Assembly: GCA_963771465.1 (NCBI GenBank)
Contig: CAVYTU010000014.1
Span: forward strand, 928,001 to 992,000
Direction: 5' to 3'
Length of the DNA: 64,000 nt
Origin: an uncultured delta proteobacterium
Lineage (GTDB): Bacteria > Desulfobacterota > Binatia > UBA9968
The notes below the pieces were generated by a model. It saw only the letters and a list, made by a program, of their open reading frames with translations. It was not told where the DNA came from and did no database searches. Made by a program: the position numbers and the translations under genes. This document shows positions 2,830 through 41,575 of this stretch, piece after piece (positions within the stretch are counted from its first letter, which is position 1; each line of letters begins with the position of its first letter).

Positions 2830-2964
2830 TCCGCTATTCTCGCTCTTAAATGAGTGCCATTTATGATCAACCCATCCTTCATAATCCAAAAGTGCTGCTA
2901 AACCACAATACCGCAACAAGCAAATCGAACGAGCCAGCTTCTATGGAGCCTTCAGGGGTCAAAT

Positions 2965-3300
2965 TGAGCTGCCCCGGGTTTCACGGACAGTTAATTAGGC
3001 GACACTCCATCGGGCTTGTAACTGCATTGGTGTTTGATAATTCAATGACTGATGCAGTCGTTTGCGATTGTAAAACATTCCAATGTATCTGAAAGATTTC
3101 TGCTCGTGCCTCGTCGCGAGTGTGATTGCCCCGGGTGGTGAATGATCTCGTTTTTCAGCGAACTGAAGAAGCTCTCCGCCGCATTGTCATAACAGTTTCC
3201 CTTGCCGCTCATAATACGCAGATTGCCGTACTGTTCGAGTGGATAACGTGCGCCGCGACCGCCGCCAGCAATTACCGCGGGATCGGGACTGGCTCGGCGG
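2965..3300 (-). mobile_element. IS3-family remnant: orfB C-terminus plus terminal inverted repeat
   Basis: Translates to MSGKGNCYDNAAESFFSSLKNE and RLHQSLNYQTP (DDE integrase C-terminal motifs). IR TGAGCTGCCCCGGGTTTCACGGACAG starts at 2965. Confidence 0.85.
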
Positions 3301-3468
3301 GCGCGGCTTCGGCATAGTATAGGCATAGGATTCTGAACAAGCGGGCAGCGCATTCAGAAGCAACCGAATCTTACATTCACCTGATGGACGGTGGTTTCAT
3401 CATATGAACGGCCAATTCAAGATGGTTGTGAATATGGACACCATGACGTGATCGATTAGGGGGAATCC

Positions 3469-3984
3469 ATGGCCAAAAAAACTAGTGCTGGACTTTTGTT
3501 GTATCGTCGTTGTCCGGAGCTTGAGGTTTTTCTTGTCCATCCCGGTGGACCGTTTTGGACAAGGAAGGATGCTGGGGCATGGTCAATACCGAAGGGCGAA
3601 GTCGAGGATGGCGAGGACCCGCTTCAGGCCGCCAAGCGTGAGTTTACGGAAGAGACCGGTTTTACTATTTCTGGAGAGTTTCGTTCTCTCGATTCGCTAA
3701 AACAACCTAGCGGAAAAATAATCTATGCATGGGCGATTGAAGCTGACTACGACCCTGGGCAGATTCGCAGCAATTTATTCTCGCTGGAGTGGCCGCCCAA
3801 GTCCGGTAAAATGCAACAGTACCCAGAGGTCGATCGCGCGGCATGGTTCAACATCTCTGAAGCCAGGAATAAGATTTTGGCTGGTCAGGTCGGGTTCATC
3901 GAGCAACTCATCGCGGTTCTCGGGATAAATAGGTCGGAGTCGCAACTCTCGAAAACTGCAAGTTCTCAGGGGTCGCTCTTTTAG
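3469..3984 (+). CDS. NUDIX hydrolase, copy 1
   Basis: Nudix box PKGEVEDGEDPLQAAKREFTEETG; HPGGPFW motif. Confidence 0.9.
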   Translation: MAKKTSAGLLLYRRCPELEVFLVHPGGPFWTRKDAGAWSIPKGEVEDGEDPLQAAKREFTEETGFTISGEFRSLDSLKQPSGKIIYAWAIEADYDPGQIRSNLFSLEWPPKSGKMQQYPEVDRAAWFNISEARNKILAGQVGFIEQLIAVLGINRSESQLSKTASSQGSLF

Positions 3985-4083
3985 ATCGTCCTAAGGCCAA
4001 ACGGGGCAAAGGTGGAAACCACTGGGCTCAGACTTCTATGACCCGACTACCTCGTCATTCGTGGTAAGACCGACGAAATCCAA

Positions 4084-4210
4084 AATGTCAAAATCAAGAC
4101 CTGACCCCGACTGCGTGTTTGCAAAAATGTCAGAAGTAAAACTTTGACGTTTGATTTCTATCGATGATGTCAAGATTCAAGATTTGGCCCCGATCTTTTT
4201 GACCCGATCG
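4084..4210. repeat. Cluster of REP-like GTCA-N11/12-TGAC(CCC) motifs
   Basis: aatgtcaaaatcaagacctgacccc (4084-4108), aatgtcagaagtaaaactttgac, gatgtcaagattcaagatttggcccc and ttgacccgatc. Confidence 0.8.
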
Positions 4211-4346
4211 TTTCTGCTCTGCCTTGACACAAAGTTAAACGCGATGTTAGAGCTCAGCGGCAAAGGACGCTTCCATGCCGAACTATTTTCATTCTAACTT
4301 TGGCGGGTGAGCTCGAACGCCGTGGGAGAGTAAGATTAATCACTCT

Positions 4347-5964: not shown

Positions 5965-6188
5965 AGGTCATCTCCTTGGTTTTTAATTTTGGTCCTGCAC
6001 CTTAGTCGTTTGGCAGCCCCCAAATTCGACACACATCCAAACATATTTTTTTGATCTCCTGGAGCCGCCGTTCCAAGTACCGCCGCTCAGGAGCGTAGCC
6101 AAGACAAAGGGTGTCGACCGCGAAGAAGATCTGCATGGTACATTGGTTTCATCATATGAACGGCTAGCGTAATCGATTAGGGGAATCT

Positions 6189-6653
6189 ATGGCCAAAAAA
6201 ACTAGTGCTGGACTTTTGTTGTATCGTCGTTGTCCGGAGCTTGAGGTTTTTCTTGTCCATCCCGGTGGACCGTTTTGGACAAGGAAGGATGCTGGGGCAT
6301 GGTCAATACCGAAGGGCGAAATCGAGGATGGCGAGGACCCGCTTCAGGCCGCCAAGCGTGAGTTTACGGAAGAGACCGGTTTTACTATTTCTGGAGAGTT
6401 TCGTTCTCTCGATTCGCTAAAACAACCTAGCGGAAAAATAATCTATGCATGGGCGATTGAAGCTGACTACGACCCTGGGCAGATTCGCAGCAATTTATTC
6501 TCGCTGGAGTGGCCGCCCAAGTCCGGTAAAATGCAACAGTACCCAGAGGTCGATCGCGCCGCATGGTTCAACATCTCTGAAGCCAGGAATAAGATTTTGG
6601 CTGGTCAGGTGCGGTTCATTGAGCAACTCATCGCGGTTCTCGGGATGAAATAG
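6189..6653 (+). CDS. NUDIX hydrolase, copy 2 (near-identical to 3469-3984)
   Basis: Same sequence apart from a few substitutions and a 1-nt indel near the 3' end (ataaatagg vs atgaaatagg). Confidence 0.9.
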   Translation: MAKKTSAGLLLYRRCPELEVFLVHPGGPFWTRKDAGAWSIPKGEIEDGEDPLQAAKREFTEETGFTISGEFRSLDSLKQPSGKIIYAWAIEADYDPGQIRSNLFSLEWPPKSGKMQQYPEVDRAAWFNISEARNKILAGQVRFIEQLIAVLGMK

Positions 6654-6866
6654 GTCGGAGTCGCAACCCGCCAAAACTGCAAGTTTTCAAACGTTCCTCT
6701 TTTAGATCGTCCTAAGCCAACCGTGACAAAGTTGGAAACCACTCGGCCCAGACTTAATGATCCGACTACGTCGACAATTAGATTTGCGGCGGCAGGATGT
6801 TGACGGTGCATTGCCGGCTTGATACTCATCGGTGGATTTAAACTTTAGAAATTTGGAGGCTATTTC

Positions 6867-7935: not shown

Positions 7936-7974
7936 GGGGTCAGACTTTTACTTCTAGAGTCAAAGTCTGACCCC
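7936..7974. repeat. Perfect 13-bp REP-like hairpin between convergent genes, possible bidirectional terminator
   Basis: GGGGTCAGACTTT-tacttctagagtc-AAAGTCTGACCCC. Confidence 0.85.
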
Positions 7975-9370: not shown

Positions 9371-9470
9371 GAGCCAGGAATAAGATTCGGGCTGGTCAGG
9401 TCGGGTTCATTGAGCAACTCATTGCGGTTCTAGGGATAAATAGGTCGGAGTCGCAACCCTCGAAAACCAC
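9371..9470 (+). pseudogene. Third, partial copy of the NUDIX 3' end
   Basis: gccaggaataagatt..ctggtcaggtcgggttcattgagcaactc..gataaataggtcggagtcgcaac matches about 3862-3957. Confidence 0.85.
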
Positions 9471-9544
9471 GGCGGGCGGTGCGGGCTAACCGCTAACGTT
9501 TTTTAACTCCTGAACGGACCACTCTGAAAAAGCTTGATGATTAT

Positions 9545-9757
9545 CTAACGCGCTTTCTCCAACTCCGCCAAACGAGTCTTCGCCTGATTCGCGTACGGCG
9601 AGTCGGGATATTTTTCTACGATCTGCCGATAAAGTTTCGTAGCGTGCGGCTTGTTGAACTGCTTCTCTTCGAGCTGCGCCGTATCGTATAAATCCTTCGC
9701 TTTATCACCGCAGCCCGTGAGCAGTAGAAGCAGGCAGGCGGCAAGAAATCTTCGCAT
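9545..9757 (-). CDS. Small TPR-like lipoprotein
   Basis: Lipobox LLLTGC; YRQIVEKYPDSPYANQAKTRL. Confidence 0.8.
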   Translation of the reverse strand: MRRFLAACLLLLLTGCGDKAKDLYDTAQLEEKQFNKPHATKLYRQIVEKYPDSPYANQAKTRLAELEKAR

Positions 9758-9853
9758 GAAAATTCTCCTTGTCGAATAGCCGTGAGACGTGAGGCCTGAG
9801 GCGATTCGGTTGATCGTGCAAAGCTCAGACTCACGCTTAACACCGATCCGGAC

Positions 9854-10955
9854 TTACACTCTGAACTGAGCAATCAGGTCATCTTCCGGATCCGCGCCGA
9901 GACCTGGGCCCTGCGGAACTTCAACTCCGCCGTTGATCACCGGCACGGTCTTGGAGAACGGAGTCGCGCCAAAGTCGGCAAACATCCGCTCGAGCGGAGA
10001 ATCTTTCTCTTTCGCCGCGAGGCAATGCAACACCGCTAGAAAAGCCGGTCCCAAATAAAAGGCGTTCGGCACGCAGAGGGCGCCCGCTTGCTCGACCTCG
10101 GCCGCTACTCTTGCCAAGGCGGTGATGCCCAGCTTGACCATGGCGGGCTGAACGTAATCAGCCTTGCCGATAGTGACCATGCGGCGGAACTCGCGCAGAC
10201 TGGTTGAGTTCTCGCCAATCCCCATGGGTACGCCGGTGACCGTGCGCAGCTTGGCAAGTGCTTCGAAGTCCTCCGGAGGATAGATCGGCTCCTCGACCCA
10301 GAACGGCTTGTACGGCGCCATCGCCGAGACCGCCGCCTCGGCTTCGACCGGCGTCCAAGCGCAGTTTGTATCCACCATGAGCGGAATGTCCGGCCCCGTC
10401 ACCTCGCGCGCGGCAGCGACCGCCTCAGGGAGTGCGCTCATGCAGCTTAATCAGGCGATAACCGCGTTCGAGAGCGCGAGCGGTGTTGCGCTTGATGTAT
10501 TCTGAGTTGCCGGAATATTGCAGCAACGAAGCATAGCATTGGACGTGCGTTCGCTTGGCGCCGCCAAGGAGCGTCGACACCGGAACACCCGCAAGCTTCC
10601 CCCGAATGTCCCACAGCGCAATGTCGAGTCCCGCGAGAGCGTGGGCCAGCGGACCGGAGCGGCTCATTGAGAGCAGCATCCGTTCTATGCGTGGGACGAG
10701 TTGCTCATCCGAGGCGCTCTGTCCAACGGCGAGACGCCTGATCCAGTTGTCGAACGCTGCGACGACCATGGGACGGGCTGTGCCGAATGACTCACCCCAA
10801 CCCACCAGGCCGCCACTGGTCGTCACGCGTACATAAAGGCTTTCAACATGCGTGCGTGGTATACCTTGAGCCATCGGCGCCGGAGCCCAGATGTCCAACG
10901 GAATGCGCAACGTGATCGTTTCGATCGCGGAGATTGTCTCGTCCATGGCCGTCAT
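9854..10955 (-). pseudogene. Mandelate racemase/muconate lactonizing enzyme family, single frameshift near 10430
   Basis: N-half has GWGES, LDIALWDIRGK and KLH; C-half has LMVDTN, WVEEP, GEN and PGLG. Confidence 0.85.
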
Positions 10956-11169: not shown

Positions 11170-11243
11170 CCCGAAACATCAAGATTCAAGACTTGACCCC
11201 GAATCTCTGAATCTGACCCCGAATCTCGTTGACCCCGAATCTC
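11170..11243. repeat. REP-like end followed by three TGACCCCGAATCTC reiterations
   Basis: ccgaaacatcaagattcaagacttgacccc; TGACCCC at 11194, 11214 and 11230. Confidence 0.85.
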
Positions 11244-11708
11244 CGTTCCGGGTCGGTCTCGCCGTTAGCACCATTGATGCACTCCTGCATCTCGGCGCTG
11301 GGCCCAGGGACAATCACCCGTTCTTGTTCACACCCGCCACGCCGGGAGAACGGCTCATTGACCCGAAATGTCTGTAGCACCGGCAGCGGTCCACAATCCC
11401 AGCCGAGTTTGGCGGTGCGTTGTGTGCGGTAATGTCAACTTTGGACCGGAGCGAATTCGGCGCAGCGAGTGCCGCGGGACAGTTGGCTGCAGCTGAGGAG
11501 GAATAAACCTATGGCATTCGCTGATTCACGGCTGGATATTTCGGGACTGGGTCAGCTAGCGGCTGCAATTGGGGCAATCCCTGCTTCAGAGGGGAAGAGA
11601 TCGATCTTACGCCTGCAGACAGTGGCCCGACCGCGAGTTACTAGCCGCAATGAGACTCAGACAGTTCCGACGTGCTGTGATATTCGTCCGGCCCGAACTC
11701 TACTCACC

Positions 11709-11897: not shown

Positions 11898-12640
11898 AAT
11901 AGCCTCCTGAGTAAAACGCATATAGCTCAGTCAACGCTAGCACTGCAAACAAATCCACGACGACACGAGGATTGCAGATTCTCGTAGCACGTGTAAGTAG
12001 ACGAAATTACACTGCGCTGCAATATACAAAACGAATCCATCAGTATACGGAACCAGACGCTGAGGATTATTTTTTCCGCCTCCTCCGTATGCCAGCCGCT
12101 TTATTTTGACCCCGTTGATGCTTTGCTCGGATCGGAATCACTCGGCACTGAGCTGTGAGTGAAGCCAATTCTCTGAGAGCCCTCACCAGCTAACCATTCC
12201 AACCCCGGGTCATAGGTGTCATATCTCCTTGAATTCTTCATAAAGTATTACGCGCGTGACCCATGTGTCAGATTTAACAGCGTGAAGGCCGACAATGAGA
12301 AACCCGTCGTGGACAGGCGACTGGACCGACCCGACACGAGAATTGATGATGCTCTGCCCAGGGAAATCAGAATCACGGATGTGCACTTGATTTCGAGTGT
12401 CGTGAAGACTAGCAAGACGGACAACCACCAGCAAAAACCAACAGAAAATCCACGCCTCTCTCCCCTCTTCTCCGTCTGTGAGTGCTCCTTGTTGCTGAAG
12501 GAACGAGCACAAAACTAGCACAGCAGGGATCGCAGAGTCGCCCCTCGCCTTGCACGCGGTCTTTGCCGATACTAATATCGGCTGGGCGGTATACTCCAGT
12601 TAGGCGCACCGACGAACGTGAGTCGGAGATAACGGAAATG

Positions 12641-13436
12641 AATAAATCTGTCCCCATTTTCTGCTCACGGTAGATGACCGTGAATCTCCGCGCCATGACC
12701 TACAACATCCACAGTGGCTTTGGACGGCACGGCCACGACCTTCACACCATCCTTCGGGTAATCGAGGCCGAGCGGGTGGACCTCGTGGCGCTGCAGGAAG
12801 TCGATTTTGCGTTGCGTCGAAGCGGGTACGTCAACCAGGCCCAATGGCTCGCCGATCGTCTCAGTATGCACGCGATCATCGGCGGTACGCGTCGTCAAGG
12901 CCGTTACGGCAACGCGCTGCTCACGCGCTGGGCGACCACCTTCGTGATGAACCACAGTCTCACCGTGCGGCCGCATCCCGGACGGGCCTGCCTGGAGGCG
13001 CACCTTACCACCCCGAAGGGCACGCTTCGCTGTTACGTGACGCACCTGGGGCTGGTGCCTCAGGAGCGCATGGCCCAGGTGAAGCGGTTGACCCGGGAGA
13101 TCATCGTGGCGGATGGAGGCCATGAGCCGGCTCTCTTGATGGGTGATTTCAACACGGTGTCGCGAAGCCGCGTCTCACGCCTTCTACGGAGGCGCTTCAC
13201 CGACGCGTTCAAAGTCGCGGGGAACGGTCGGGCTGCGACCTTCCACGCACGGCTGCGAGGGATGCGGTTCGACTATATCTATGCCGCCGGTCTGACGCCG
13301 ATCGCCGCTCACGTGCTCGTGACACGCTGGTCCGTCAGGGCATCCGACCACCTTCCGCTCGTCGCGGTGTTGCGGGCCGATTTCGGCGGAAAGCACACCC
13401 CTGATCCTAACTTGAATTAATGGAGACAGATCTATT
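12641..13436. repeat. 18-bp imperfect inverted repeats bracketing the EEP gene
   Basis: aataaatctgtccccatt (12641-12658) and aatggagacagatctatt (13419-13436); 16/18 match in inverted orientation. Confidence 0.75.
12674..13420 (+). CDS. Endonuclease/exonuclease/phosphatase (EEP) family protein
   Basis: MTYNIH, ALQEVD, GNALL, THL, MGDFN, FDYI and SDHLP motifs. Confidence 0.92.
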   Translation: MTVNLRAMTYNIHSGFGRHGHDLHTILRVIEAERVDLVALQEVDFALRRSGYVNQAQWLADRLSMHAIIGGTRRQGRYGNALLTRWATTFVMNHSLTVRPHPGRACLEAHLTTPKGTLRCYVTHLGLVPQERMAQVKRLTREIIVADGGHEPALLMGDFNTVSRSRVSRLLRRRFTDAFKVAGNGRAATFHARLRGMRFDYIYAAGLTPIAAHVLVTRWSVRASDHLPLVAVLRADFGGKHTPDPNLN

Positions 13437-13543
13437 TTTCACAGACGCATCACAGTTTCGTTTTCACAACGATCCAAAGACTGTACATGGGGTTTTGAAA
13501 AAACTTCCGTAAGGGACAAAGATTGCGGTCGCACAAAGATTTT

Positions 13544-30323: not shown

Positions 30324-30330
30324 AAAAATC

Positions 30331-30410: not shown

Positions 30411-30434
30411 ACAACAACTGGTGTGGAGGTATTT

Positions 30435-31586
30435 ATGATTGGCTACGGATTGATTTCGGCCGATTCTCACGCAAATGAAGTTGCTGCAACCTGGGAGCGA
30501 GTCCGCCGCAAATACGGCGACCGGGCTCCGCAAATACTGTGGAATCCGAGCGCAGAGGAACCCGGTCCTTACCTGTCAATTCCGGAGTGGGATACGAGCC
30601 TGGAAGGCCATAACCGCGAATCCTGCGCGATGGAGTTCGTCGGCATGGTGATCGGCGGGCTCGGCATAGGCAGCGTTGTCGGTCGTACTTCGGGGAAAGC
30701 CGCCGAATTTCGCAAAAAATTCCGCTTCGAAGACTGGCCAGGGCCGTGGGAGCCCAACTCCCGGCTCAAAGACATGGACCGCGACGGAATCGATGCGGAT
30801 ATTATTTACGCCAGTCATCTGCGCCACATTTACGGGCTAAGCGTCAAGGACGAGCCTTTCTTTCGCGCCATCGCGCAGTCGTACAATGATTGGTTGATGG
30901 AGTACTGTAGCGTTGACCCTAAACGGCTCATCGGCCTGCCGGTGCTTTCCATTCTCGACGTTCAAGGCGCAGTGCAAGATTTAACCGACTACAGCAAGCG
31001 GGGGGCTAAGGGATTCATGATTGCATCGTCGACACCGCTCGGCAGTAGCTACGGCGACAGAAAGTTCGACCCCCTATGGGCGGCGGCGCAGGACGCCGAC
31101 ACCCCGCTCTCCCTGCATACGACGACCGGCGCATGGAAAAAAGCCAAGTTCCATCATCCGCGGGTTCGCACTTCGATCCGCGGCGAGGGTGAAATTCAAA
31201 CGTCACTTCTCGAGATGATTTACGGCGGTGTTTTCGATCGCTTTCCTCGGTTAAAGATTGTTGCCGCGGAGTGGGACATCGGCTGGGTCGCCCATATGGT
31301 AGGTAAATTCAAAGACCATGATCCGAAAACCGGACTCCAATTGGCTCCCGCCGAGTATTTCCGCCGTAACATTTGGTTCACATTCGAGAACGACCGCGCT
31401 GGAGTGTTGACCACCCCGCTGTACGGTGCGGAGCGCTTTTTATGGGCGAGCGACTATCCACATGGCAATACCACATGGCCGGATTCCAAACAGATTGTCG
31501 AACAGCAGTTTGAAGGGATCTCGGACGAAATCAAACGTAAACTCACGCGCCAGAATGCCATCGATCTGTACAAGCTGGAATTCTGA
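30435..31586 (+). CDS. Amidohydrolase family protein (amidohydro_2)
   Basis: ISADSH, DMDRDGID, SLH, FDRFPRLK, WASDYPH. Confidence 0.9.
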   Translation: MIGYGLISADSHANEVAATWERVRRKYGDRAPQILWNPSAEEPGPYLSIPEWDTSLEGHNRESCAMEFVGMVIGGLGIGSVVGRTSGKAAEFRKKFRFEDWPGPWEPNSRLKDMDRDGIDADIIYASHLRHIYGLSVKDEPFFRAIAQSYNDWLMEYCSVDPKRLIGLPVLSILDVQGAVQDLTDYSKRGAKGFMIASSTPLGSSYGDRKFDPLWAAAQDADTPLSLHTTTGAWKKAKFHHPRVRTSIRGEGEIQTSLLEMIYGGVFDRFPRLKIVAAEWDIGWVAHMVGKFKDHDPKTGLQLAPAEYFRRNIWFTFENDRAGVLTTPLYGAERFLWASDYPHGNTTWPDSKQIVEQQFEGISDEIKRKLTRQNAIDLYKLEF

Positions 31587-31610
31587 TCGTAGTATTGGCG
31601 AGCTTAGGTC

Positions 31611-32726
31611 ATGGCAGATCCAATGGAGTCATTTATGAAACTGTTATGCCGGTATGCGGCTTTCTCCTGGTTAGTGTTCGGTGCTCTTGGCTTGCCGCTT
31701 TTCGCAGCGACGGCACAGACGAAACCAACCTATCATGTTAGTTCGAGCCGTGAAGAAATCGTCTCAGCAGCTAAGAAAGAAGGAAGACTGCGCATTCTCA
31801 CGACCATGGATGACGCCGACACCAAAGCGAATACGGCGGCATTCAAAAAGAAATACCCGTTTATCGATGTCCACGCACAGCAAAGCCGCGGCACTGATTC
31901 GGCGCAGCGCTTGTTGCTGGAAATCAAAAGCGGCATGGCTAAGGAATGGGACGTAGTCCTGGTTTCCGCGGACTTCTACAGCGAATATCACCCGTACCTC
32001 TGGAAAGCGGATATTCTGGAGATGGCGAAAAAGGGAATCCTCCAAATACCGCCGCCGATGATCGACCCGCGCAATAAAAATGTGCTCGCGTCTTTCAGCT
32101 ACTTTCAAGCGACCGCCTATAATTCCAAGCTGATTCCGGCCAATTTGGTTCCCAAAACACTGAACGACCTCCTGCGACCGGAACTCAAGGGGCGAAAATT
32201 TGCCGTCGATATTCGACCCAAGGATGTCGCCGGACTTGTTCCTGCATGGGGCATGGAGAAAACTTTGGATTTCGCCCGTAAGATTGCCGCCCAGCAACCG
32301 ATCTGGGTGCGCGGCGGATCGCGAATCATGATGTCCATTATTTCGGGCGATATCCCGATGATGATGGGCAATAACTATGGCAGCGTTCGGGAAGCGCAGC
32401 GCAAAGATCCCGCTGGTGTGCTCCAGTATGCGATCCTTGAGCCCGTGCCCGTCAGGTTCGGCAACGCTCAGGCGATTTTAATGAGTGCGCGGCATCCTTA
32501 CGCCGGTTTATTGTGGCTGGAATGGCTCGCATCCGCCGAAGCACAGAAAATCATCGACGACACTGAGCCCTATAGTTCTTCCGTTTACGTGCGCGGTGGT
32601 GTGGTGGAACAAGAACTGAGGGGCAAGAGCTTGTCTGTTGTTGATTGGGAACACTATCCGCAAATGGAAGACTGGCAGGCAAAAATCGTGGCGGCGTATG
32701 GTTTGCCTAAAGCCGAGACAAAATGA
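31611..32726 (+). CDS. ABC extracellular solute-binding protein (AKKEG paralog family)
   Basis: Motifs shared with the 20005 paralog; probable start at 31635. Confidence 0.88.
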   Translation: MADPMESFMKLLCRYAAFSWLVFGALGLPLFAATAQTKPTYHVSSSREEIVSAAKKEGRLRILTTMDDADTKANTAAFKKKYPFIDVHAQQSRGTDSAQRLLLEIKSGMAKEWDVVLVSADFYSEYHPYLWKADILEMAKKGILQIPPPMIDPRNKNVLASFSYFQATAYNSKLIPANLVPKTLNDLLRPELKGRKFAVDIRPKDVAGLVPAWGMEKTLDFARKIAAQQPIWVRGGSRIMMSIISGDIPMMMGNNYGSVREAQRKDPAGVLQYAILEPVPVRFGNAQAILMSARHPYAGLLWLEWLASAEAQKIIDDTEPYSSSVYVRGGVVEQELRGKSLSVVDWEHYPQMEDWQAKIVAAYGLPKAETK

Positions 32727-32774
32727 TCGCGCAGTTTTACCAGGAGCGGCAGGTCGAGAGGAGCTTACATTCAC

Positions 32775-33728
32775 ATGTCTGAAGAAAAACCGACTACGCG
32801 GCTCAGAAAGCTGCTCAGCAGGAAAGATCGAGTGCTCGTCATGCTTCACCCTCCCACTGCCGCGCATGCGCGGATCATGGCAGCCGGCGGCGTCGAAGCA
32901 TTGTTCGTCGGGACCGGCGCCGTGGTCGGGCCATACACTGGTCTAGCGGATGTGGGAGTGGCGAGCATGACCGAATGTGTAACCATCGCCGGGTGGATCG
33001 CGCGTAGTGTTGCGATCCCCGTCATGCTCGATGGCGATACGGGTCATGGTGGAATCATGGCCGTGCGGCGCCTGGTGGCCGAGTGCATCAGGGCCGGGAT
33101 TGCCGGACTGCGTCTTGACGACCAACCGGGTGAAACCAAGCGGGGAACACAAACTGCCGGAATCGAAGTAGCACCGCTTGAAGTTGTCCTAGCCCGTTAT
33201 CGGGCGGCAGTGGACATGAGGGACGAACTTGATCCTGATTTTGTGATCATGGCGCAGAGCTACGCGCGCGATGCGGCGAATGGCGGATTCGAAGAATTTT
33301 TGCGGCGCAGCAAAGCTTACAAAGAAGTGGCCAAAGTGGATTGGGTTCAATTCGAATCGCCCCACTCGATCGAGGAGATTCGCCAGGCGCGCGCGGCCGT
33401 GGCGGGAACTTTTTCGGCCCAGAAAGGAAAGCTCCCGCGCATTCTATCTCTCAAAGAGCATCTCGAATTGGGGCTCAATGTAGCCTGGTATTCCGGTCTT
33501 GCAACCGCGGTCACGTATGTGGCGCTGTGGGATTTTCTGCAAGATTTTCAAAAACGCGAGCTCGCAGCCTGGGAAGATTTCTGCGTGGCACACAAAGATA
33601 ATCCGTATCTGCGTGGTGGTGGCCGAGCGCCAATTCCGGAAGGGCGCGAAAAACAACGCGAGCTAGAGGAACGCTATTACCCGAACGAGATGCTTCAGAA
33701 ATACCGCGGCCCTTCCGAGAAAGGCTAA
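32775..33728 (+). CDS. Isocitrate lyase/PEP mutase family protein
   Basis: GLADVG, MLDGDTGHGG, LDDQ..KRG. The canonical K-K/R-C-G-H cysteine is absent. Confidence 0.85.
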   Translation: MSEEKPTTRLRKLLSRKDRVLVMLHPPTAAHARIMAAGGVEALFVGTGAVVGPYTGLADVGVASMTECVTIAGWIARSVAIPVMLDGDTGHGGIMAVRRLVAECIRAGIAGLRLDDQPGETKRGTQTAGIEVAPLEVVLARYRAAVDMRDELDPDFVIMAQSYARDAANGGFEEFLRRSKAYKEVAKVDWVQFESPHSIEEIRQARAAVAGTFSAQKGKLPRILSLKEHLELGLNVAWYSGLATAVTYVALWDFLQDFQKRELAAWEDFCVAHKDNPYLRGGGRAPIPEGREKQRELEERYYPNEMLQKYRGPSEKG

Positions 33729-33877
33729 TCTGCTGCAAGGTTTGAACGGACACTGGACCCGATCCGGTGGATTGAACCGCTTGAACAGTTCAGTATTGTT
33801 GTCTGTCTACTCTCGACTAGGCAAGCGGAAGCAGACGATGTTCCAGGGCTAAGAGCGTGTTCGCGTTTGGCAGTTCG

Positions 33878-34290
33878 CCCGGGATTTGACGGACACCAAA
33901 CAAGGGCTTAAAAAGTTCGGGAGATGCGTTCGACAAGAAAGCAGAAGCAATTTAGCGCTGAGTTTAAACGAGTAGCCGTGCGACTTGCGGAAAGTTTCTC
34001 GGAGGGGTGAAAATGGAAGAGGGTGTCACGATTGCCAAGGTGCCGGATTGGATGAAGCTCAAGCCCGAGATGATGCCGCATCTGATCAGGGAGCACGAGA
34101 AACTTGGGCGCACCCTGACCGAGGAAGAGACAGTCACGTTGCTCCGCAGCTTGGGATTCGAAATCAGTGAGCCGAAGTGATGAGGAACAACAAGTCGGCT
34201 CTGGGGTCAGGTCTGCAATCACACATTCCCGCTTCGCTCCTCCATCCGTTCGAGGCGTCGTCTCACCGTCGGATGCGCCGCGATCTCCGC
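33878..34290 (+). mobile_element. Composite IS3-end/REP remnant (copy B)
   Basis: Aligns with 19029-19420; GGGGTCA at 34203. Confidence 0.8.
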
Positions 34291-34955
34291 TATGAGTCAA
34301 AGTCCAGTCCGCTGAACTTCCCGTCCGCGTATTCGCACGACCAGTAGACGTCTACATCCGGTCCATCGAAGTCAACCAGGACAGGTTGCCGTGATCGCAG
34401 CTTGATCGAAGCGAGGCGCAGTGCGCTGACGTCGGCGCCCAATTCGGGATCCTCGGACGCCCACTCCTTCGCCGTCAGCGCGAGATAGTCGTTTAACCGG
34501 CGCTCGAAGGTATCGAAATCCGCCACTAGCTCGCGAGCACGGGCGACGAGTGCCGGATTGGGCTCCTGCTTTCCGTCGATGAGGATTTCCACCGTCCGGT
34601 CCCGCACCCTGAAGTCGCCCTCCCAAGCCTCCGCCTCGACGTTGCGAATCAGCGTGCCGAGCTGCGGATCCCTCCGCACGTGACCGCGCGCTCTGCTCAT
34701 GATCAGGTGAGCGCGGGGGGACACTTTCGTCCAGATGACCGAGATCACAAACGCACTCATGACACCGACAAACATCAGGCCGACGCCGATGACGAGCCAC
34801 CTCAGGATCCAGTATGAAATGCGCGTGCCGGCGTAAATCAGGAGCAGCCCAATGGCCGCGCCGATGAGCGCGTCGCGGACTGTGGGTTGAACCTCGTCGT
34901 GATCGTCCGTCGGAGGCGGATCGGCAGCCAAGCGGCTTGAATCTTCGATAGACAT
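34290..34955 (-). CDS. Membrane-anchored hypothetical protein
   Basis: Two predicted TM helices followed by a soluble domain; GGGTCA-N12-TGAC lies 15 bp upstream (34971). Confidence 0.7.
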   Translation of the reverse strand: MSIEDSSRLAADPPPTDDHDEVQPTVRDALIGAAIGLLLIYAGTRISYWILRWLVIGVGLMFVGVMSAFVISVIWTKVSPRAHLIMSRARGHVRRDPQLGTLIRNVEAEAWEGDFRVRDRTVEILIDGKQEPNPALVARARELVADFDTFERRLNDYLALTAKEWASEDPELGADVSALRLASIKLRSRQPVLVDFDGPDVDVYWSCEYADGKFSGLDFDS

Positions 34956-35032
34956 GTAGAGAGACTGCGAGGGTCAGGCATGAGTAATTGACTTATTTTC
35001 TTCGAAGCAGAGCTAGGAAAAACAGTTGCGCG

Positions 35033-35260
35033 CTACTGCCGATTCTTGGGTTGGGAAGAAGCGGAACTCTCGGCTTCCATCTTGGCGAGCACGCGGTTCA
35101 GGGCGGCGATCTGAGGGATGATCTTTTTGTCTTTGGTGCCTTGAAACCGAAGCGCCAACTCATCCACGCGCCATTCGATCTGGGCGCGGGTAAACTTCTT
35201 CGGCAGTATGAACTGGATCGGCATCGGCGCTGTATATCGCAGCATCGAGCCGAAGGTCAA
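35033..35260 (-). CDS. Small hypothetical protein
   Basis: Open frame with plausible helical content (IEWRVDELA..IAALNRVL). Confidence 0.4.
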   Translation of the reverse strand: MTFGSMLRYTAPMPIQFILPKKFTRAQIEWRVDELALRFQGTKDKKIIPQIAALNRVLAKMEAESSASSQPKNRQ

Positions 35261-35279
35261 GCACGATCGACGCGGCCGC

Positions 35280-35375
35280 CTAGGCCAAGCAGTGCGCGGC
35301 GCGGGGATCGCGAGTAAGAAGTTGTGGAGTCGAATCCAGAAGTGTCTGTCCGGAATGAACGAAAATAAACAAGCC
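35280..35375. repeat. MetE-like 3'-end repeat in opposite orientation
   Basis: gatcgcgagtaagaagttgtggagtcgaatccagaagtgtctg..atgaacgaaa is the reverse complement of the 24913 family. Confidence 0.75.
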
Positions 35376-35484
35376 GCTTTGGGTGGCTGCGAACGCCGAC
35401 GTTCACCCGGCGACGCAACGGCGCTGGATCACCGACGAGCCTATGGGTGCGCCGCGTCCGGCGCAATTGCAAGTCGGCAGCGAT

Positions 35485-35985
35485 TCAGGGCAATCGGGTC
35501 TTTGCTTCGGCAAAGAATGCCGACAACGTAGGCGCGATTTCGACCATCCCATCTGCAAGAATGAGATCTGCGTTTATCCCGATGTCATGATAGATCTGGA
35601 TGAGCGGCGGATCGTCGCTCGCCCTTGTGTTGAGGAAGTACTGGTCACCCGATCCGTGTGCGCAACCGCCAACGCAGAGGTAGCCGTGCCGCAGCACCGC
35701 AGTTCCCGGATACAGCTCGAGTGATTCCGTATGGATCGAGTCAGGCCCCAGCCATAAGAGCCAACTGATTTCGTCGCCTTCGGACGACTCCGGCACGACG
35801 ATGCCGAGTTCGAGGCCAATCAGAGGTACCGTGGCAAGAAGGTCACGGTACCAATCTGGCAGATGGGCGCCAAGGTCACGGCCAAGTCGATCAAGGTCGT
35901 CTGCAGCCGCGAGTCTGCCGGCCTGGCCGTCCCGTTCGGCGCGCTCTACAAGTTCCCGTGCTGCAGCGAGGACTTTCAGATTCAT
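35485..35985 (-). CDS. SMI1/KNR4 family protein (putative toxin immunity)
   Basis: LG..LPDWYRDLL; YLCVG..GSGDQYFL; IAPTLSAFF. Confidence 0.75.
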   Translation of the reverse strand: MNLKVLAAARELVERAERDGQAGRLAAADDLDRLGRDLGAHLPDWYRDLLATVPLIGLELGIVVPESSEGDEISWLLWLGPDSIHTESLELYPGTAVLRHGYLCVGGCAHGSGDQYFLNTRASDDPPLIQIYHDIGINADLILADGMVEIAPTLSAFFAEAKTRLP

Positions 35986-36226
35986 CGAGTTCGAGCCTTC
36001 AACGTGCTGTTGTCCACGAAGCTACGTCGCGGGCACCAGGGTCAAATATACAATCAATACAATTTGCACTGCTTGCATGTAGTTTGGCCAGTAGCAGTAG
36101 TTCCAATAGCGAAAGCATCGGCACTTCGCTTCACGCTCTCTAATCCTCGACGTACTTTGTGACTCCTCACCGTCCTGCCGTGAAGAGATTGCCGGCGCTA
36201 TCGATGGCAACGTCGCAGAAGCGTGA

Positions 36227-36301
36227 GGGTCAAACTTTTGATGTTCGGAGAAGGATCGATTGAGGCGAAGCCGTAGATGTCAAAACTTAAGTTTCAACCC
36301 C
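36227..36301. repeat. Inverted REP-like pair
   Basis: gggtcaaacttttgatg ... gatgtcaaaacttaagtttcaacccc. Confidence 0.7.
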
Positions 36302-36331
36302 GTGCTCCGCCGTTCTCCGCCCGTGCGAGGA

Positions 36332-37357
36332 TTACGCGGCGACTGTTTCGCGCGGCGCGACCTTTGCGCGCCGCGATATCATCGCTGCGGCATTGTCGTG
36401 CAAGATCTTTGCGCGCGCGTCCTCGCCGATCTGCGCTTCCGCGAGCGCCTTGCTGGTCCACTCGCAGCCGAATTCGGTTCCGTCGGTGCCGCACACGATG
36501 CGCTCGGCGCCGTACAACCGTACCGCGGCCTCGATCGCACCCGGGCCGAACGAGTTGCAATCCACGTACACCTTGGCGCGGCGGAAGCGCGACGAAGGCA
36601 GTTCCTCTTTCGCTGAATCCAGCAGGCTGCGGTGATCCATGCGCTCGATCTCGTACGGAATATTGCCGCCGAGATTGTGAACCAGGACCATCGCATCGGG
36701 GTACGGCGCGAGGTAGTCGGTGAGACACAGCGTCACCATCACCGAGGACAGGCTCGCCTGCATGTCGAGCGTGCCGTTGCGGCGGCGCGCGTTGTCGGTG
36801 TCGCCGGCAACCTTGGGAAACGCGTCGCCAGGCCGCGGACCGTGGTGAATGAAGACGATCGCACGGTGCCGGTTCGCCACCTCCAACAGCGGGCGCATGT
36901 TCTCGGCGTCCTTCTTCGTGAGAAACCCGTTTCCCGGCACTTGCGCGCCGATCACGCCCGGCAGCGCCAGCGCGCGCTCAAACTCGGCGGCGGCAGCAGA
37001 CATATCCACCAGCGGCAGCGCGGCAAACACACTGAAGCGCCCCTCGTATTGCTGGCACATCCGTGACAGTGCATCGTTGACCATCCTGCACAGCGGCAGC
37101 GAAACCTCGACCGGCTGCGACTCAATCCAGCAGAACGCACCGAGCAGCGACAACACACTGGTGCTCACGCCCTGACGATCCATCCTGGCGAGATGGAATT
37201 CCACGTCATCAAACGCCGCGGACAGCGGCTCCTCGCCGATCCGGCTCTTCAGCATTTCTACGCCGTCCTGATTGCGCACGATGCGCGGTTCCTTGGTGCG
37301 GGCGCGCAGGGCGTCGATCAGCTCGGCGGGCCGCCAATGGGCATGCATGTCGATCAT
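36332..37357 (-). CDS. Amidohydrolase family protein (ACMSD-like)
   Basis: MIDMHAH, MDRQGV, FIHH, HNLGG, GTDG. Confidence 0.88.
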   Translation of the reverse strand: MIDMHAHWRPAELIDALRARTKEPRIVRNQDGVEMLKSRIGEEPLSAAFDDVEFHLARMDRQGVSTSVLSLLGAFCWIESQPVEVSLPLCRMVNDALSRMCQQYEGRFSVFAALPLVDMSAAAAEFERALALPGVIGAQVPGNGFLTKKDAENMRPLLEVANRHRAIVFIHHGPRPGDAFPKVAGDTDNARRRNGTLDMQASLSSVMVTLCLTDYLAPYPDAMVLVHNLGGNIPYEIERMDHRSLLDSAKEELPSSRFRRAKVYVDCNSFGPGAIEAAVRLYGAERIVCGTDGTEFGCEWTSKALAEAQIGEDARAKILHDNAAAMISRRAKVAPRETVAA

Positions 37358-37636
37358 GTCTGTCTCCTTGGTTTATCGTCCAACAGATTAACCCCGAAAG
37401 TCCCAGTGTGCGCGAGATTGTTTGCCAACTATCCCGCAATTTATTTCAACCGCCACAGCGAAGCAAGCGCTTTGCCGCACCCCTGCTGCTACTTCAACGG
37501 CCCTTTCGTTAACACCTACGCCGAAATTCACCAGGCGTTGGAAAATTTCCGCGCTGGTCGGTTCTGGATTCCGGTTTCTATGAGTGCGTGAGAAGGACGG
37601 TTGCCACCAGCGGAACAACCGCCCCTTCCGTGTCAT

Positions 37637-39322
37637 CTATGTAGTCATCACGTCGATGATCGCCGGCTTGCCGCTTTGGTTGGCTTCGAGGCCGCGCTTG
37701 AGCGCATCCTGAAGCTTTTCCGGATCCGTCACCGTCTCGCCGTAACCGCCCACGGATTCAGCGACCTTCACGAAGTCGGGCGCATTGATGTGGGTGCCGT
37801 GGTAGAGATCGATTTCCGCCGCGATCCCGTCCGGGTACATCTTCTGGTGCATGCCCTGCATCGCGGCGTATTTTTTGTTGTTGAAGATGACCGCCATGAT
37901 CGGCAGCGTGTAATCGCGCGCCGCGCCGAGGCTGCCGAGCGACGGATTGTAGAGGAACGCGCCGTCGCCGATCAGCGTTACCACCTGCCGTTCCGGCTTC
38001 GCCAGCTTGATCCCGAGCGAAAGACCCAACCCCTGTCCGAGCCCGCCTTGGCGGGTGAACAGGCACTGCGGGTCGTTCCATACGAGGTGTTGGCGCAGCG
38101 TGGCGGTGTGCGTAGTAACTTCGTCGATATAGATCGTATCTTTGGGCATCACGGCGTTCAGCGACGCGCACAGCCATACCGGATCGATCGGTGACGTCTT
38201 GCGCGCCGCCGCCTGCGCCGCATTTCTTTTCTCGACGAGCGCATCGTGCGCCGCGGCGAGTTCCTTGCGTCTCGTTTCCACGGCAGCCTTATCGATTGTC
38301 GCGGTATCCGCCAGATCGCGCAGCGTCTGCGCCGCATTGCCTTCCAGGTACATGTCGGCCTGATGGCTTTGATAGACCATGGCCGAGTTGTGCGGCGCCT
38401 CGTCCACCATGGCGATCACGGCCTTGGGCGGACGGTTGCTCGGCGGATACCAGGGGACGCGCGTGCGGACGACGATCGCAAGGTCCATGTCGTTCCAGAA
38501 CGGTTTGATGTCGGTTCCCTGATAAAGCGGATGATCCTTGGGGAAGTTGGCGAACAGAGCGCCGGGCTTCTCAACCACCGGCAGAGCGAACTTCTCGCAC
38601 AGCGCCATCAGAGCCTCGTAGGTCGCGACCTCCTGGCCGGCGCCCTCGGTGAGCACGACCGGGTGCTTCGCCTTGGAGATCTGCGCGGCGAGCTTTTCAA
38701 TGTCTTCCGGCGCAGTCAGCATGCGCGGTGCGGGCGGAACCGTGCGTGGATTGGCCGGGGGTGTCCAGCCATCCATCAGCGTTTCCGTCGAAACGGACAG
38801 ATAAGTGGGTCCGGTCGGTTGCCGCTGCGCCAGCTCGCCGGCGCGGATGACGCTTTCATAAAGCGTGTAGGCGCTGCCAGCGACGGAGGCGTACTTGACG
38901 ATCGAATCGACCAGGTGGGTCGTGCCGCCGACGATGCTGAGGTTGTTAATCCACTGGGCGCCCGGATCGAACTCCGGTTGCTCGCCGTAGGTCATCGACT
39001 CGCCGGAGATCACCACCATCGGCACGCCGGAAACAAAGGCGCCGTGAATACCCATGGCACCTTGCAGCAGCCCGGAACCCGCATGCAGCAATACGCCCTG
39101 CATCCGACCAGTGGCTAGTGTGTAGCCCGCGGCCATGTCGACGGCCAGCGTTTCGTGCCACACATCCAGGAGCTTGGGACCGCTCTTGCGCCGGTGGATC
39201 TGGTCGGCCATGGCTTCCCAGACGGGCGCCCATTCGGTGCCCGGCGAGGACAAGATGTACTCAACTCCAAGCTTGTGAAACGCTTCGACTATAGCGTTGC
39301 CGCCGTCGAACTGTTTTTTCAT
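37637..39322 (-). CDS. Thiamine pyrophosphate-binding enzyme (acetolactate synthase/benzoylformate decarboxylase-like)
   Basis: SPGTE, WHE; TPP motif GDGAFLYN..IFNN. Confidence 0.9.
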   Translation of the reverse strand: MKKQFDGGNAIVEAFHKLGVEYILSSPGTEWAPVWEAMADQIHRRKSGPKLLDVWHETLAVDMAAGYTLATGRMQGVLLHAGSGLLQGAMGIHGAFVSGVPMVVISGESMTYGEQPEFDPGAQWINNLSIVGGTTHLVDSIVKYASVAGSAYTLYESVIRAGELAQRQPTGPTYLSVSTETLMDGWTPPANPRTVPPAPRMLTAPEDIEKLAAQISKAKHPVVLTEGAGQEVATYEALMALCEKFALPVVEKPGALFANFPKDHPLYQGTDIKPFWNDMDLAIVVRTRVPWYPPSNRPPKAVIAMVDEAPHNSAMVYQSHQADMYLEGNAAQTLRDLADTATIDKAAVETRRKELAAAHDALVEKRNAAQAAARKTSPIDPVWLCASLNAVMPKDTIYIDEVTTHTATLRQHLVWNDPQCLFTRQGGLGQGLGLSLGIKLAKPERQVVTLIGDGAFLYNPSLGSLGAARDYTLPIMAVIFNNKKYAAMQGMHQKMYPDGIAAEIDLYHGTHINAPDFVKVAESVGGYGETVTDPEKLQDALKRGLEANQSGKPAIIDVMTT

Positions 39323-39492
39323 GTTGCTCCCCCCAACGGTTATATTGTCGTGTGTATTATCTCACGCCTGAACGCGCAAGCCCCCAAGGCGGGCTATCGA
39401 TATCTCTGGAATACCGCGATCGCGCCATCCTGCAGCGGCGAATCTTTACCTTTCAGATTGCTACAAGTGCTGGATCCAGGAGAAAAATAGCA

Positions 39493-39672
39493 GTCAGACT
39501 TTTACTCTTGGACTTTTTTGTTATTTATTTCGCTCAGCCGGCACGGGCACTTTTTAATTCAACTCCACAACTTCTTCCGCGCGATCGCCGCGCCGTCGCG
39601 CAGCGCGCGCAGCTTGGCCCGCGAGATTTGCGGATGGACACGCCGCCTAGGCCGCTGTCGGTGCCGGCGATA
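39493..39672. repeat. REP-like motif plus MetE-like 3'-end repeat
   Basis: gtcagacttttactcttggac..tcaactccacaacttctt..gtcggtgccggcgat; minus strand reads IAGTDSGLGG..HPQI..AKLRALRDGAAIARKKLWS*. Confidence 0.85.
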
Positions 39673-39730
39673 TGTTCCATGAACTCTCATGCGTGTTGAC
39701 CCGTGCCTGGGATTACGTTTCAATTTAGCC

Positions 39731-40744
39731 ATGAAGAAAAAGATTGCGCTGGTTTTGATCCTGCTATTCGCTGGATTGAACAGCTTTGCTCAGACGAACT
39801 CTACACCCGGCGCGCCGACTGCAGGTATCATCGCTGCCGCCAAAAAATTCCTCGCTACACTTGATGATGCCCAGCGCGGTAAAGTCGTCTTTGCTTTCAA
39901 AGACGAGACGCAGCGCAAGCGCTGGTCGAATCTTCCGACAGGAATCTTCAAACGCCAGGGCTTGCGCATGGGCGACCTCACAAAATCCCAGCGCGAGGCC
40001 GTGCTGGCGGTGCTGGCAGCAGCGTTGAGTCCGCAGGGCTACACTAAAATTCTACAGATCGTCGAGGCCGACGAGTTGTTGAGAAAATCGAGCGGCCAGA
40101 CAATGTTTGGCCGCGAGGAATATTATGTCTCTTTCCTCGGCCAGCCTTCCACCGCCGAGCCGTGGATGATTCAGTTTGGCGGGCATCATCTCGGCCTCAA
40201 CATCACGCTTGCCGGCGCGCAGCGCACGCTCGCCCCGAGCCATACCGGGGCGCAGCCGGCGATTTACGAACTCGAAGGCAAAACGATGAGCCCTCTCGGT
40301 CGCGAGACTGACAAGGCGTTTGCCCTGCTTAGTTCGCTGAACGAAGCGCAGCGCAAGCAGGCCATCCTTGATTTCCAGATGCGCGACCTTGTGCTCGGGC
40401 CCGGCCGCGACGGGCAGACGATTCAGCCGGAAGGAATCAAAGGCTCGGCCTTGAGCGAGAAGCAGCGTGAGATGCTGCTCGATCTCGCCGGCGAATGGAC
40501 CGGCATCCTGCACGAAGCTGTCGCGAAATCGAAAATGGACGAGATGAGAAAAAATATCGCCGAAACCTGGTTCGCGTGGAGCGGCCCCACTGAAAAAGGC
40601 AGCGCCGCTTACTTCCGCATCCAAGGGCCGACGGTAATCATCGAATACGCGCCGCAGCGCTTGGGCGGCGACGCGACAAAGCACATCCACACGATTTACC
40701 GCGATCCAACCAACGATTACGGAAAGAGATGGTGGACGCCGTGA
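39731..40744 (+). CDS. DUF3500 domain secreted protein
   Basis: WSNLP, FGGHHL, YFRIQGP, HIHTIYRDPTNDYG. Confidence 0.88.
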   Translation: MKKKIALVLILLFAGLNSFAQTNSTPGAPTAGIIAAAKKFLATLDDAQRGKVVFAFKDETQRKRWSNLPTGIFKRQGLRMGDLTKSQREAVLAVLAAALSPQGYTKILQIVEADELLRKSSGQTMFGREEYYVSFLGQPSTAEPWMIQFGGHHLGLNITLAGAQRTLAPSHTGAQPAIYELEGKTMSPLGRETDKAFALLSSLNEAQRKQAILDFQMRDLVLGPGRDGQTIQPEGIKGSALSEKQREMLLDLAGEWTGILHEAVAKSKMDEMRKNIAETWFAWSGPTEKGSAAYFRIQGPTVIIEYAPQRLGGDATKHIHTIYRDPTNDYGKRWWTP

Positions 40745-41265
40745 TCAGGAGACTTTGTCGTCTGCCGCTGCTGCTCGCATTACTGGCGTTTCCGTGCGCC
40801 GTTTTCGCGCATCGGGATGATCAGTATCTGCAAGCGACCCTGGTGACCATCGAACCGAGCGGCGTCCGGCTGCAAATCAACTTGACGCCGGGCGTGGCTA
40901 TCGCCGAACAGGTGCTCGCCGAGATCGACCACGACCGTGACGGCGCGATTTCCAAGAACGAAGCGGCAGCCTATGTCGAGTTGCTGAAGCGCGCTCTCAC
41001 GCTGCGCATGGACGGGCGAAAGTTAGCATTGAAACTCACTGCGTCTGAATTCGTCGAACCTGCAGAACTGCGCACCGGTTCGGGAACAATTCAGATGAAA
41101 TTATCCGCAATCCTCAGCCCGCTCGCGGCCGGTGCCCACAAGCTCACTCTCGAGAACCGGCATTTAACCGCGATCAGTGTGTATCTCATCAACGCTACTC
41201 AGCCCAGGTTTACCACGGTCCAGATCACCAGGCAGAAACGCAACGATGAACCAGAGCGCAGGTGA
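40729..41265 (+). CDS. Secreted protein resembling the HupE/UreJ-associated N-terminal domain, possibly truncated
   Basis: AHRDDQYLQATL..LTPGV..IDHDRDGAIS; ends shortly before the REP-like motif at 41355. Confidence 0.65.
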   Translation: MVDAVIRRLCRLPLLLALLAFPCAVFAHRDDQYLQATLVTIEPSGVRLQINLTPGVAIAEQVLAEIDHDRDGAISKNEAAAYVELLKRALTLRMDGRKLALKLTASEFVEPAELRTGSGTIQMKLSAILSPLAAGAHKLTLENRHLTAISVYLINATQPRFTTVQITRQKRNDEPERR

Positions 41266-41575
41266 AATCGAATTTACCTTTCATCCGTTTCGCCCAAAGA
41301 CTGCTGTATCCGGTGCGCCGACTTGAATTCGGTTGGGGCGAAAACATTAGATTCAGGTCAAGTTTAAATCTTGACGTTTCTGTTTTGGGTTTTGCTCTCA
41401 ATAATCGCTTGAAAAGATCTGCTGGCAGTCTTGAAATGGAAATGGGCCAGCAGGATTTGGCTCTCCCCACGACGCGTTTTCTCGTTCCCAAAAGGCACCG
41501 CGAGATACTTCGGCTTCTCAGAGCGGAACACGGACCCTCAATGGGTCCAAAGTCATAAAGTGTGAGACATGCGGG

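Follow-up and report, generated by a model that had tools for sequence, protein, structure and literature searches.

Clustered GGGGTCA motifs in a flexible island of an uncultured Binatia genome are probably the terminal inverted repeats of a Y1/HUH transposase element

Why does one short motif, GGGGTCA, recur beside so many unrelated genes within a single stretch of a bacterial genome? The stretch in question (the window: 64,000 nucleotides, C14:928,001-992,000) belongs to an uncultured soil bacterium, a delta proteobacterium of the Binatia with a genome of about 6.9 Mb (here G000, of which contigs C3, C13, C14, C17 and C19 are concerned), and positions given below without a contig are those of the window. 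The initial annotation had taken the motif, in the form GGGGTCA-N11/12-TGAC, for the recombination site of an integron-like system of gene capture. Comparison with five relatives (G003, G004, G014, G015 and G018) among 31 genomes of the genus, and with transposase loci from other phyla, points elsewhere: GGGGTCA is probably the outermost part of the terminal inverted repeats (TIRs), about 25 bp long, of a Y1/HUH insertion sequence (IS)-like element of the TIRYT/TIRtron class, relics of which have piled up in a flexible island. In what follows, GGGGTCA is called the head, and the repeat that it opens is called the box.

One line of evidence for this reading comes from the transposase genes. Matches to the Pfam family Y1_Tnp (PF01797; E 5e-12) were found in G000 on C3 (15858-16715) and C17 (922937-923785) only, both outside the window, which is where the enzyme gene had been predicted to lie. 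The two proteins (285 and 282 residues, respectively) are 99.6% identical over 274 residues; the transposase scores 84.5 bits against the NCBIfam model NF047646 (REP_Tyr_transpos, the tyrosine transposases linked to repetitive extragenic palindromic (REP) sequences; cut-off 80), and among its aligned homologs in the genus the HUH motif is present in 28 of 28 and the tyrosine of RY..NP in 26 of the 27 that reach that position. On C17, GGGTCAGGTCTTGAATCTTGAT stands about 50 nt 5' of the ATG, and the inverted sequence ...AAGACTTGACCC follows directly 3' of the stop codon; in the C3 gene this 5' box recurs, interrupted by an IS3-family element. The suspected tie between the motif family and a Y1/HUH tyrosine transposase is thereby supported, and the search for a Y1_Tnp or RAYT (REP-associated tyrosine transposase) gene flanked by the motif found one in the C17 gene.

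Homologs are present in 26 of the 31 genus genomes, in several paralog classes and with up to 22 matches in one relative (this tally, and that of genus genomes with element A below, include the unpublished genome G005, on which alone no claim rests). Thirty genus loci were fetched, 29 of them with rows of flanking sequence; among the rows listed with upstream sequence most carry an upstream head, and among the rows listed many have TGACCC after the stop codon. The 24 loci that qualified for training a 26-nt matrix of the 5' box (all from other genomes, with G000 and G005 left out) have their head 44-64 nt upstream, locus L060 has none, and the body of the box varies by transposase class. The same arrangement recurs in a cross-phylum set of 80 loci, 66 of them with a start codon where expected and 59 with a complete open reading frame (ORF) and enough downstream sequence: GGGTCA lies 42-66 nt before the start in 62 of the 66 (modes 45 and 52), with a strict fit to GGGGWSAS in 39 of the 66, an inverted TGACCC lies at -30 to +40 nt of the stop codon in 50 of the 59, and the head matches the tail at 21 of 24 positions in the median. 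Since head and inverted tail bracket the transposase ORFs in this way, the motif would be the tip of the TIRs of an IS-like element of about 1 kb. By record title, the closest homologs outside the genus are from Candidatus Binatia (69-75% amino acid identity), and further titles name Nitrospirota, delta- and beta-proteobacterial lineages, Planctomycetota, Scalindua and others. A conspicuous motif is in this way linked to a widespread, little-studied class of tyrosine transposases, with the end GGGTCAGGTCT conserved across the loci examined.

Homologs at 51-53% amino acid identity were also seen on contigs titled Promethearchaeota archaeon and Candidatus Uhrbacteria, which may reflect wide horizontal spread or a binning error. 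At loci L165-L244 the 5' box contains a TTGACA-like hexamer; about 17 nt further on comes a TGATA/TAnnnT-like one, which stops only 7-9 nt short of the start codon. The arrangement suggests a putative promoter within the TIR and a leaderless transposase mRNA.

The cluster of motifs in the window is real, but looser than first described. Twenty copies of GGGGTCA are present against 6.5 expected (the maximum in shuffled sequence was 14, and 0 of 100 shuffles reached 20), at a density about 6.7-fold that of the genome, and 17 of the 20 fall within 2955-42221. More than 20 copies of the motif or its halves had been listed; the clustering of the heads stands, whereas the full motif in its strict form occurs only twice (4087-4108 on the minus strand and 26729-26751 on the plus strand, with 0.04 expected) and the rest are heterogeneous. 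Their supposedly intergenic position does not hold for three of the 20 heads, at 16403, 42215 and 51006, which are inside long ORFs. In the whole genome the heptamer is no commoner than expected (324 copies, with 356 predicted by a Markov model), and its densest 20-kb bins are C19:0-20 kb with 12 copies, C14:940-960 kb with nine and C14:920-940 kb with seven, the last two corresponding to the left half of the window.

A genome-wide matrix scan had been proposed as a check on clustering, and the boxes do prove concentrated. At 20 bits or more, 23 boxes were found in G000 and none in shuffled sequence; eight are in the first 42 kb of the window and ten in C19:0-20 kb, so that 18 of the 23 occupy two stretches, and two more are at the C17 transposase gene. 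The 21 that lie away from this gene are gene-less TIR copies. No box was detected by the scan in C14:896-928 kb. Exact GGGGTCARRYCTT is found nine times in G000 and 0-3 times in each of the five relatives, with 0-2 in controls, and the box family of G000 is estimated at about 23-31 copies. The C19 cluster lies at a contig end (C19:1-40000) which is non-syntenic and may adjoin another contig; it has 20 boxes of at least 16 bits, in several sequence classes, and six copies of element A. A regular expression for 6-bp GTCANN hairpins with a GG tail had no discriminating power, with 47 of its 56 genome matches outside the clusters, and a GC-based filter for REP-like sites was just as noisy.

All 26 coordinates listed in the initial annotation were read in the sequence. 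Those at 4083, 4166, 7936/7949, 11175, 13544, 24912, 26729, 27870 and 34970 reach at least 16 bits on the matrix; degenerate heads (GAGTCA, GCAGTCA, AGGTCA, GGGTCG) were read at 24913, 39493, 41355, 30331 and 26833; 2955 and 13595 are heads interrupted by an IS3-family end; and 12107 and 17102 are lone heptamers within blocks kept in relatives. The best box of the window (26729-26754, plus strand, 36.6 bits) is the last of three tandem heads at 26684, 26711 and 26729 (26684-26754). On the minus strand, the box at 4083-4108 (28.4 bits), with head GGGGTCAGG, is one of the two strict motif matches, while the box at 4166-4191 (22.3 bits) has the degenerate head GGGGCCA and a counterpart on C19 (5547-5619), a composite box pair that matches it and its surroundings at 93% identity over 73 nt. 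Also on the minus strand, 11175-11236 combines a box of 29.6 bits (11175-11200) with two further tandem heads (11214-11220 and 11230-11236), and has three TGACCCC copies; the same kind of tandem head duplication was seen upstream of transposase genes in other genomes. Further boxes lie at 13544-13569 (plus strand, 21.3 bits), at 27870-27895 (minus strand, 25.6 bits), ending a unit of about 310 bp opened by the head at 27587, and at 34970-34995 (plus strand, 21.9 bits), the last being of a different sequence class whose GGCATGAG body is similar to the boxes of transposase loci L050 and L054. The heads at 19348 and 34203 belong to a segmental duplication of about 400 bp on the plus strand (19028-19419 and 33879-34287, 91% identity).

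Two sites are dimers. The 39 nt at 7936-7974 consist of two overlapping inverted boxes (18.3 and 22.6 bits) and fold as single-stranded DNA at -16.2 kcal/mol (z -7.3; none of 200 shuffles was as good). The dimer at 36227-36301, recognized by reading the sequence, has inverted degenerate boxes around a spacer of about 30 nt; it folds no better than shuffled sequence, and an 80% identical copy follows a trpF-like gene in the metagenome contig L085. Six single boxes folded as single-stranded DNA gave -0.4 to -2.3 kcal/mol (z -2.4 to +0.85), and the hairpin implied by the motif is weak. Tandem duplications of 8-15 nt plus GGGGTCA stand directly outside the box at 26684-26735 and 11194-11236, and were likewise observed at loci L036, L041, L045, L050, L053, L054 and L057, at solo boxes and transposase genes alike; they may be the footprint of cleavage or slippage at the head.

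The box is also met at the ends of another mobile element. Four of the seven IS3-type ends in G000, including those at 2965 and 13605, abut GGGGTC(A/G)NNN after its tenth base, a fifth supplies the remaining half of that box, and the same junction is seen in G018 and G014. At 2965-3353 (minus strand), a terminal repeat and the C-terminal end of orfB abut the head at 2955-2964; this fragment scores 31 bits against the NCBIfam model transpos_IS3, below the cut-off of 160. A fuller copy lies at C3:16763-17028 (81% identity over 269 nt), where orfA- and orfB-like ORFs were recognized by reading rather than by profile scan. The second IS3-family end (13605-14005, plus strand; repeat family D5, with the flank assigned by reading) abuts the head at 13595-13604 and is tandemly duplicated (13588-13787 and 13806-14005). 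An IS3-family IS would seem to insert into the box as its target site, at the tenth base in every case, and these fixed-position insertions are a second, independent sign that the box is a recognized DNA target.

The window makes up the right two thirds of a species-specific island of about 96 kb (C14: about 896.1-992.0 kb; 1-64000 in window positions). Its flanks, C14:888.0-896.1 kb and 992.0 kb onward, are adjacent and collinear in four of the five relatives (G003, G004, G014 and G015) at 70-84% identity, and about 96 kb of G000 is therefore absent from them at that place. A control region (C14:500-520 kb) is collinear over its full length in four of the five relatives (69-84% identity), whereas the interior of the island shows no collinearity, in keeping with the expectation that gene order across this region would not be conserved. 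It matches the relatives only in gene-sized blocks of 84-97% identity, scattered over many of their contigs: 11961-13444 and 17520-18882 are each 96% identical to a different contig of G018, while 9533-10947 (86-93%) and 37497-39480 (87-88%) are each shared with four genomes. The block identities exceed those of the flanking core (84-97% against 69-84%), from which we infer recent exchange within the genus. C19:1-40 kb, with the other box cluster, is non-syntenic likewise. The island is a clean example of a flexible region whose genes are closer between species than is the core, and as such is useful for studying how uncultured soil bacteria exchange genes.

Element A, the window's largest repeat, relates the boxes to one particular gene. 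It has 14 genome copies (six in the window, six on C19 and two on C13), 76-94% alike over 50-190 nt, and was found in 23 of 24 genus genomes. At 24905-25132 (plus strand) it consists of a box head, a spacer of about 85 nt and, on the minus strand, the last 52 codons of a gene of the Meth_synt_2 family (amino acids 346-397, 77% identity, by tblastn with the intact gene of G018). The copies at 27582-27762 and 39483-39672, both on the plus strand, keep 32 codons (amino acids 368-399, 84%) and 26 codons (376-401, 88%). Those at 18878-18987 (plus strand, head lost; repeat families D3/D6, BLAST) and 30331-30402 (plus strand, short; repeat family D6, alignment) retain the non-coding part only, and that at 35277-35380 (minus strand; inverted repeats I2/I3, BLAST, alignment) has also lost its head. 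In relatives element A runs into an intact Meth_synt_2 gene of 401 amino acids on the opposite strand. No Meth_synt_2 ortholog was found in G000, where C-terminal remnants of 26-52 codons with the spacer ending in a box are what is present; element A would accordingly be the box together with the 3' end of the gene that adjoins it in relatives. An earlier view of element A as a structured RNA or a miniature inverted-repeat transposable element was dropped, as it is a gene 3' remnant. The copies share their box-side end and differ in their inner ends, and conservation continues about 12 nt past the head, which is not a clean end.

If each gene or pair of genes were a cassette bounded by the motif and moved by a Y1 enzyme, boxes should mark the borders of modules, and several observations favor this: the region is non-syntenic and made of gene-sized blocks with high identity to other species, a motif-flanked Y1 enzyme exists, the two closest strain comparisons break beside boxes, and G000, G018 and G014 all carry a box or an IS-cut head at one and the same end of the 36332-37357 gene, with a box-pair spacer and its degenerate arms persisting in G004. 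The block ends themselves speak otherwise. Among 28 homology blocks (at least 84% identity and 400 nt) with 56 ends, a box of at least 14 bits was found within 150 nt on the window side of nine ends (5 of 34 distinct ends), about the level of random placement in this stretch, on the relative's side of two and on both sides of none. The left third of the island (C14:896-928 kb, 32 kb) is as scrambled as the rest and has no boxes. The trpF-like (phosphoribosylanthranilate isomerase, PRAI) gene at 26880-27593, described as a cassette between two motifs, recurs in metagenome contigs from soil and rhizosphere (80-100% nucleotide identity); in the 21 best of these the homology coincides with the ORF and the neighbors differ in nearly every contig, yet 18 of the 21 have no box within 300 nt, the three that do being the closest (91-100% amino acid identity). 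Boxes are single, tandem or dimeric and occur on both strands, their position relative to gene ends is not fixed, and their orientation and spacing obey no cassette rule; many intergenic regions lack them, and others have them in tandem or in pairs. Both strands carry genes, no attC is present, and the 14 genome matches to Phage_integrase (PF00589) include none on contig C14. The description as functionally like an integron, with no attC or IntI, is therefore right as to the missing integrase and attC, whereas integron-like function, the role of the motif as the site of a gene-capture system and the trpF cassette are not supported, and we hold this explanation to be very improbable; a false lead is removed in that the array is not a new integron-like system. 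About 15-20 nt 3' of the trpF-like stop codon were also seen to be conserved in the metagenome contigs.

A better candidate, which we still judge unlikely, is that boxes and element A shuffle the region passively, either as dispersed repeats for homologous recombination or through one-ended mobilization of variable neighboring DNA. The 14 element A copies in three genome places, with their common box-side and differing inner ends, would fit, as would the segmental duplications at 3447/6168 and 19028/33879. Part of 24001-34000 is contained in 20 Logan runs from 15 studies, and in the four examined, from soil metagenomes, which offered short contigs only, joints linking A copies or boxes connect 25001 to 39642 in three of the four runs and 25001 to 27851 in one. 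These joints, however, mostly link repeats and have sides of at most 30 nt, and may be assembly-graph artefacts at repeats; one more joint, seen in a single run with a side of 37, connects 26610 to 34964 and would remove 8.35 kb, in contigs too short to judge excision or circles. The box-free part of the island being equally scrambled, and the conservation of element A past the head, also tell against passive shuffling. Lower still we rate the chance of a regulatory role, in which the boxes would serve the island genes as a common operator or promoter. The TTGACA-like hexamer in the boxes, followed at transposase loci about 17 nt on by a TAnnnT/TGATA-like hexamer just before the start, agrees with it, and element A always points to a downstream gene; but four of its six copies stand between divergent genes, where a gene lies ahead whichever way they face, and orientation was for this reason rejected as evidence. 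Moreover, the boxes at 4083, 4166 and 13544 point into gene 3' ends, element A is a gene remnant, the window contains no Rfam family at gathering thresholds, and the analysis turned up no regulator.

Under the TIR reading, which we prefer, the genome holds two near-identical transposase genes outside the window and about two dozen gene-less boxes, which stand alone, pair up as dimers, carry tandem heads or form short units closed by inverted boxes, with most relics in two flexible non-syntenic stretches (window 1-42 kb and C19:1-31 kb). The boxes would have come in on DNA passed between species of the genus, or through local transposition to insertion-tolerant DNA, and then decayed; they would be passengers and occasional substrates of rearrangement, not definers of gene modules.

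Several points weigh against this account. The 18 strong boxes out of 23 are packed into 0.9% of the genome, and simple decay of relics does not account for such tightness. The shared box-side and variable inner ends of element A are also expected from one-ended mobilization. In the metagenome contig L085 (99% identical) homology ends 8 nt past the trpF stop codon, at a box dimer, and in L110 (96% identical) the break falls between two boxes, so that boxes may coincide with breakpoints at short evolutionary distance (n=2). A phmmer search against PDB chains returned no solved structure for the transposase, and no event of transposition, cleavage or excision was seen. The boxes may thus be hot spots over short evolutionary distances and may have a minor role in rearrangement, but they are neither required for modules nor define them. 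There is also a slight chance, on our analysis, that the Y1 enzyme now and then works from one box alone and carries off neighboring DNA of variable length, one-ended, as rolling-circle HUH elements do; were this so, a genus-wide pool of single-gene modules would be seeded, and the Meth_synt_2 3' remnants, the tandem head duplications and the breakpoints beside boxes in the two closest comparisons would all be accounted for.

The island encodes solute-binding proteins, hydrolases, a nonribosomal peptide synthetase (NRPS) cluster and regulators. A scan of 74 + 25 ORFs of the island for recombinase domains gave nothing beyond the IS3 fragment. Neither a repeat nor a tRNA gene or integrase was seen at the island's borders, and the window is free of tRNA genes. 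A NUDIX hydrolase gene segment at 3447-4057 (plus strand) has a second copy at 6168-6776 (95%) and a partial C-terminal copy at 9372-9467, and 18 nt separate the end of the first copy from a box. A gene for a mandelate racemase/muconate lactonizing enzyme is broken into two ORFs, one C-terminal (9854-10441) and one N-terminal (10425-10955), in a block (9854-10955) with 93% identity to G018:C17. Two other short pieces are multi-copy: one of about 236 bp at 9533-9769 is 87-91% identical in four relatives and lies near transposase homologs in G015:C5 and G018:C46, and one of about 120 bp at 11293-11415 occurs three times in G018, once beside the transposase ortholog (C46:77-78 kb). The NRPS cluster, on the minus strand at 41576-53477, has two intact ORFs (41576-43423 and 43451-48817), followed at 48916-53477 by six ORFs with Condensation, AMP-binding and PP-binding pieces, reflecting either frameshifts (a pseudogene) or assembly errors.

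How does this element compare with systems already named? Chromosomal integrons are stretches of unrelated accessory genes whose order differs between relatives, and the island resembles them in both respects; unlike them, it has no IntI or attC, its genes are on both strands, its repeats do not come one per gene and its block borders lie away from the repeats. REP/RAYT systems were reportedly described by Nunvar in 2010 and by Bertels and Rainey in 2011. The present transposase passes the model for REP-associated tyrosine transposases, its gene is flanked by an inverted repeat, and inverted dimers are present (7936-7974 and 36227-36301). Set against REP/REPIN-RAYT systems (Bertels 2017; PMC5581495), the differences are that single units are not stable palindromes, that there is no GTAG or CGTC tag, the head being GGGG(T)CA in all boxes read, that copies number tens rather than hundreds and are clustered rather than dispersed, and that the transposase is multi-copy and IS-like (two near-identical genes here, up to 22 matches in one relative). 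We therefore rejected a classical REP/REPIN, since a stable-palindrome unit, a GTAG/CGTC tag and a high dispersed copy number with a single-copy transposase are all lacking; of the original description as REP-like, the link to the Y1 family and the inverted dimers survive, whereas the stable single-unit palindrome and the GTAG tag do not. IS3-family elements that target REP sequences are known, such as IS1397, ISKpn1 and ISPsy8 (Tobes and Pareja 2006; PMC1525189). Here too an element, probably of the IS3 family, occupies a single fixed site in a repeat, the differences being that the target is the TIR box of a Y1 element, not a classical REP, and that the window has IS fragments only.

The closest likeness is to the TIRYT genes or "TIRtrons," which Di Nocera et al. 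(2013; PMC3733652) describe as RAYT-like genes flanked by TIRs, with a GGGGWSAS head at a constant distance from the gene, and whose TIR families they describe as moderately abundant, occurring as singles, dimers or clusters. Relative to that description, the family in G000 has few members (about 23-31 copies), gathered mainly in two flexible islands, and many of its heads end in A (GGGGTCAA) rather than S. All four of the features that characterize the class are nevertheless found: a Y1 transposase with HUH and tyrosine motifs, a gene bracketed by TIRs, a GGGGWSAS-like head at constant distance, and gene-less TIR copies, here as there single, dimeric or clustered.

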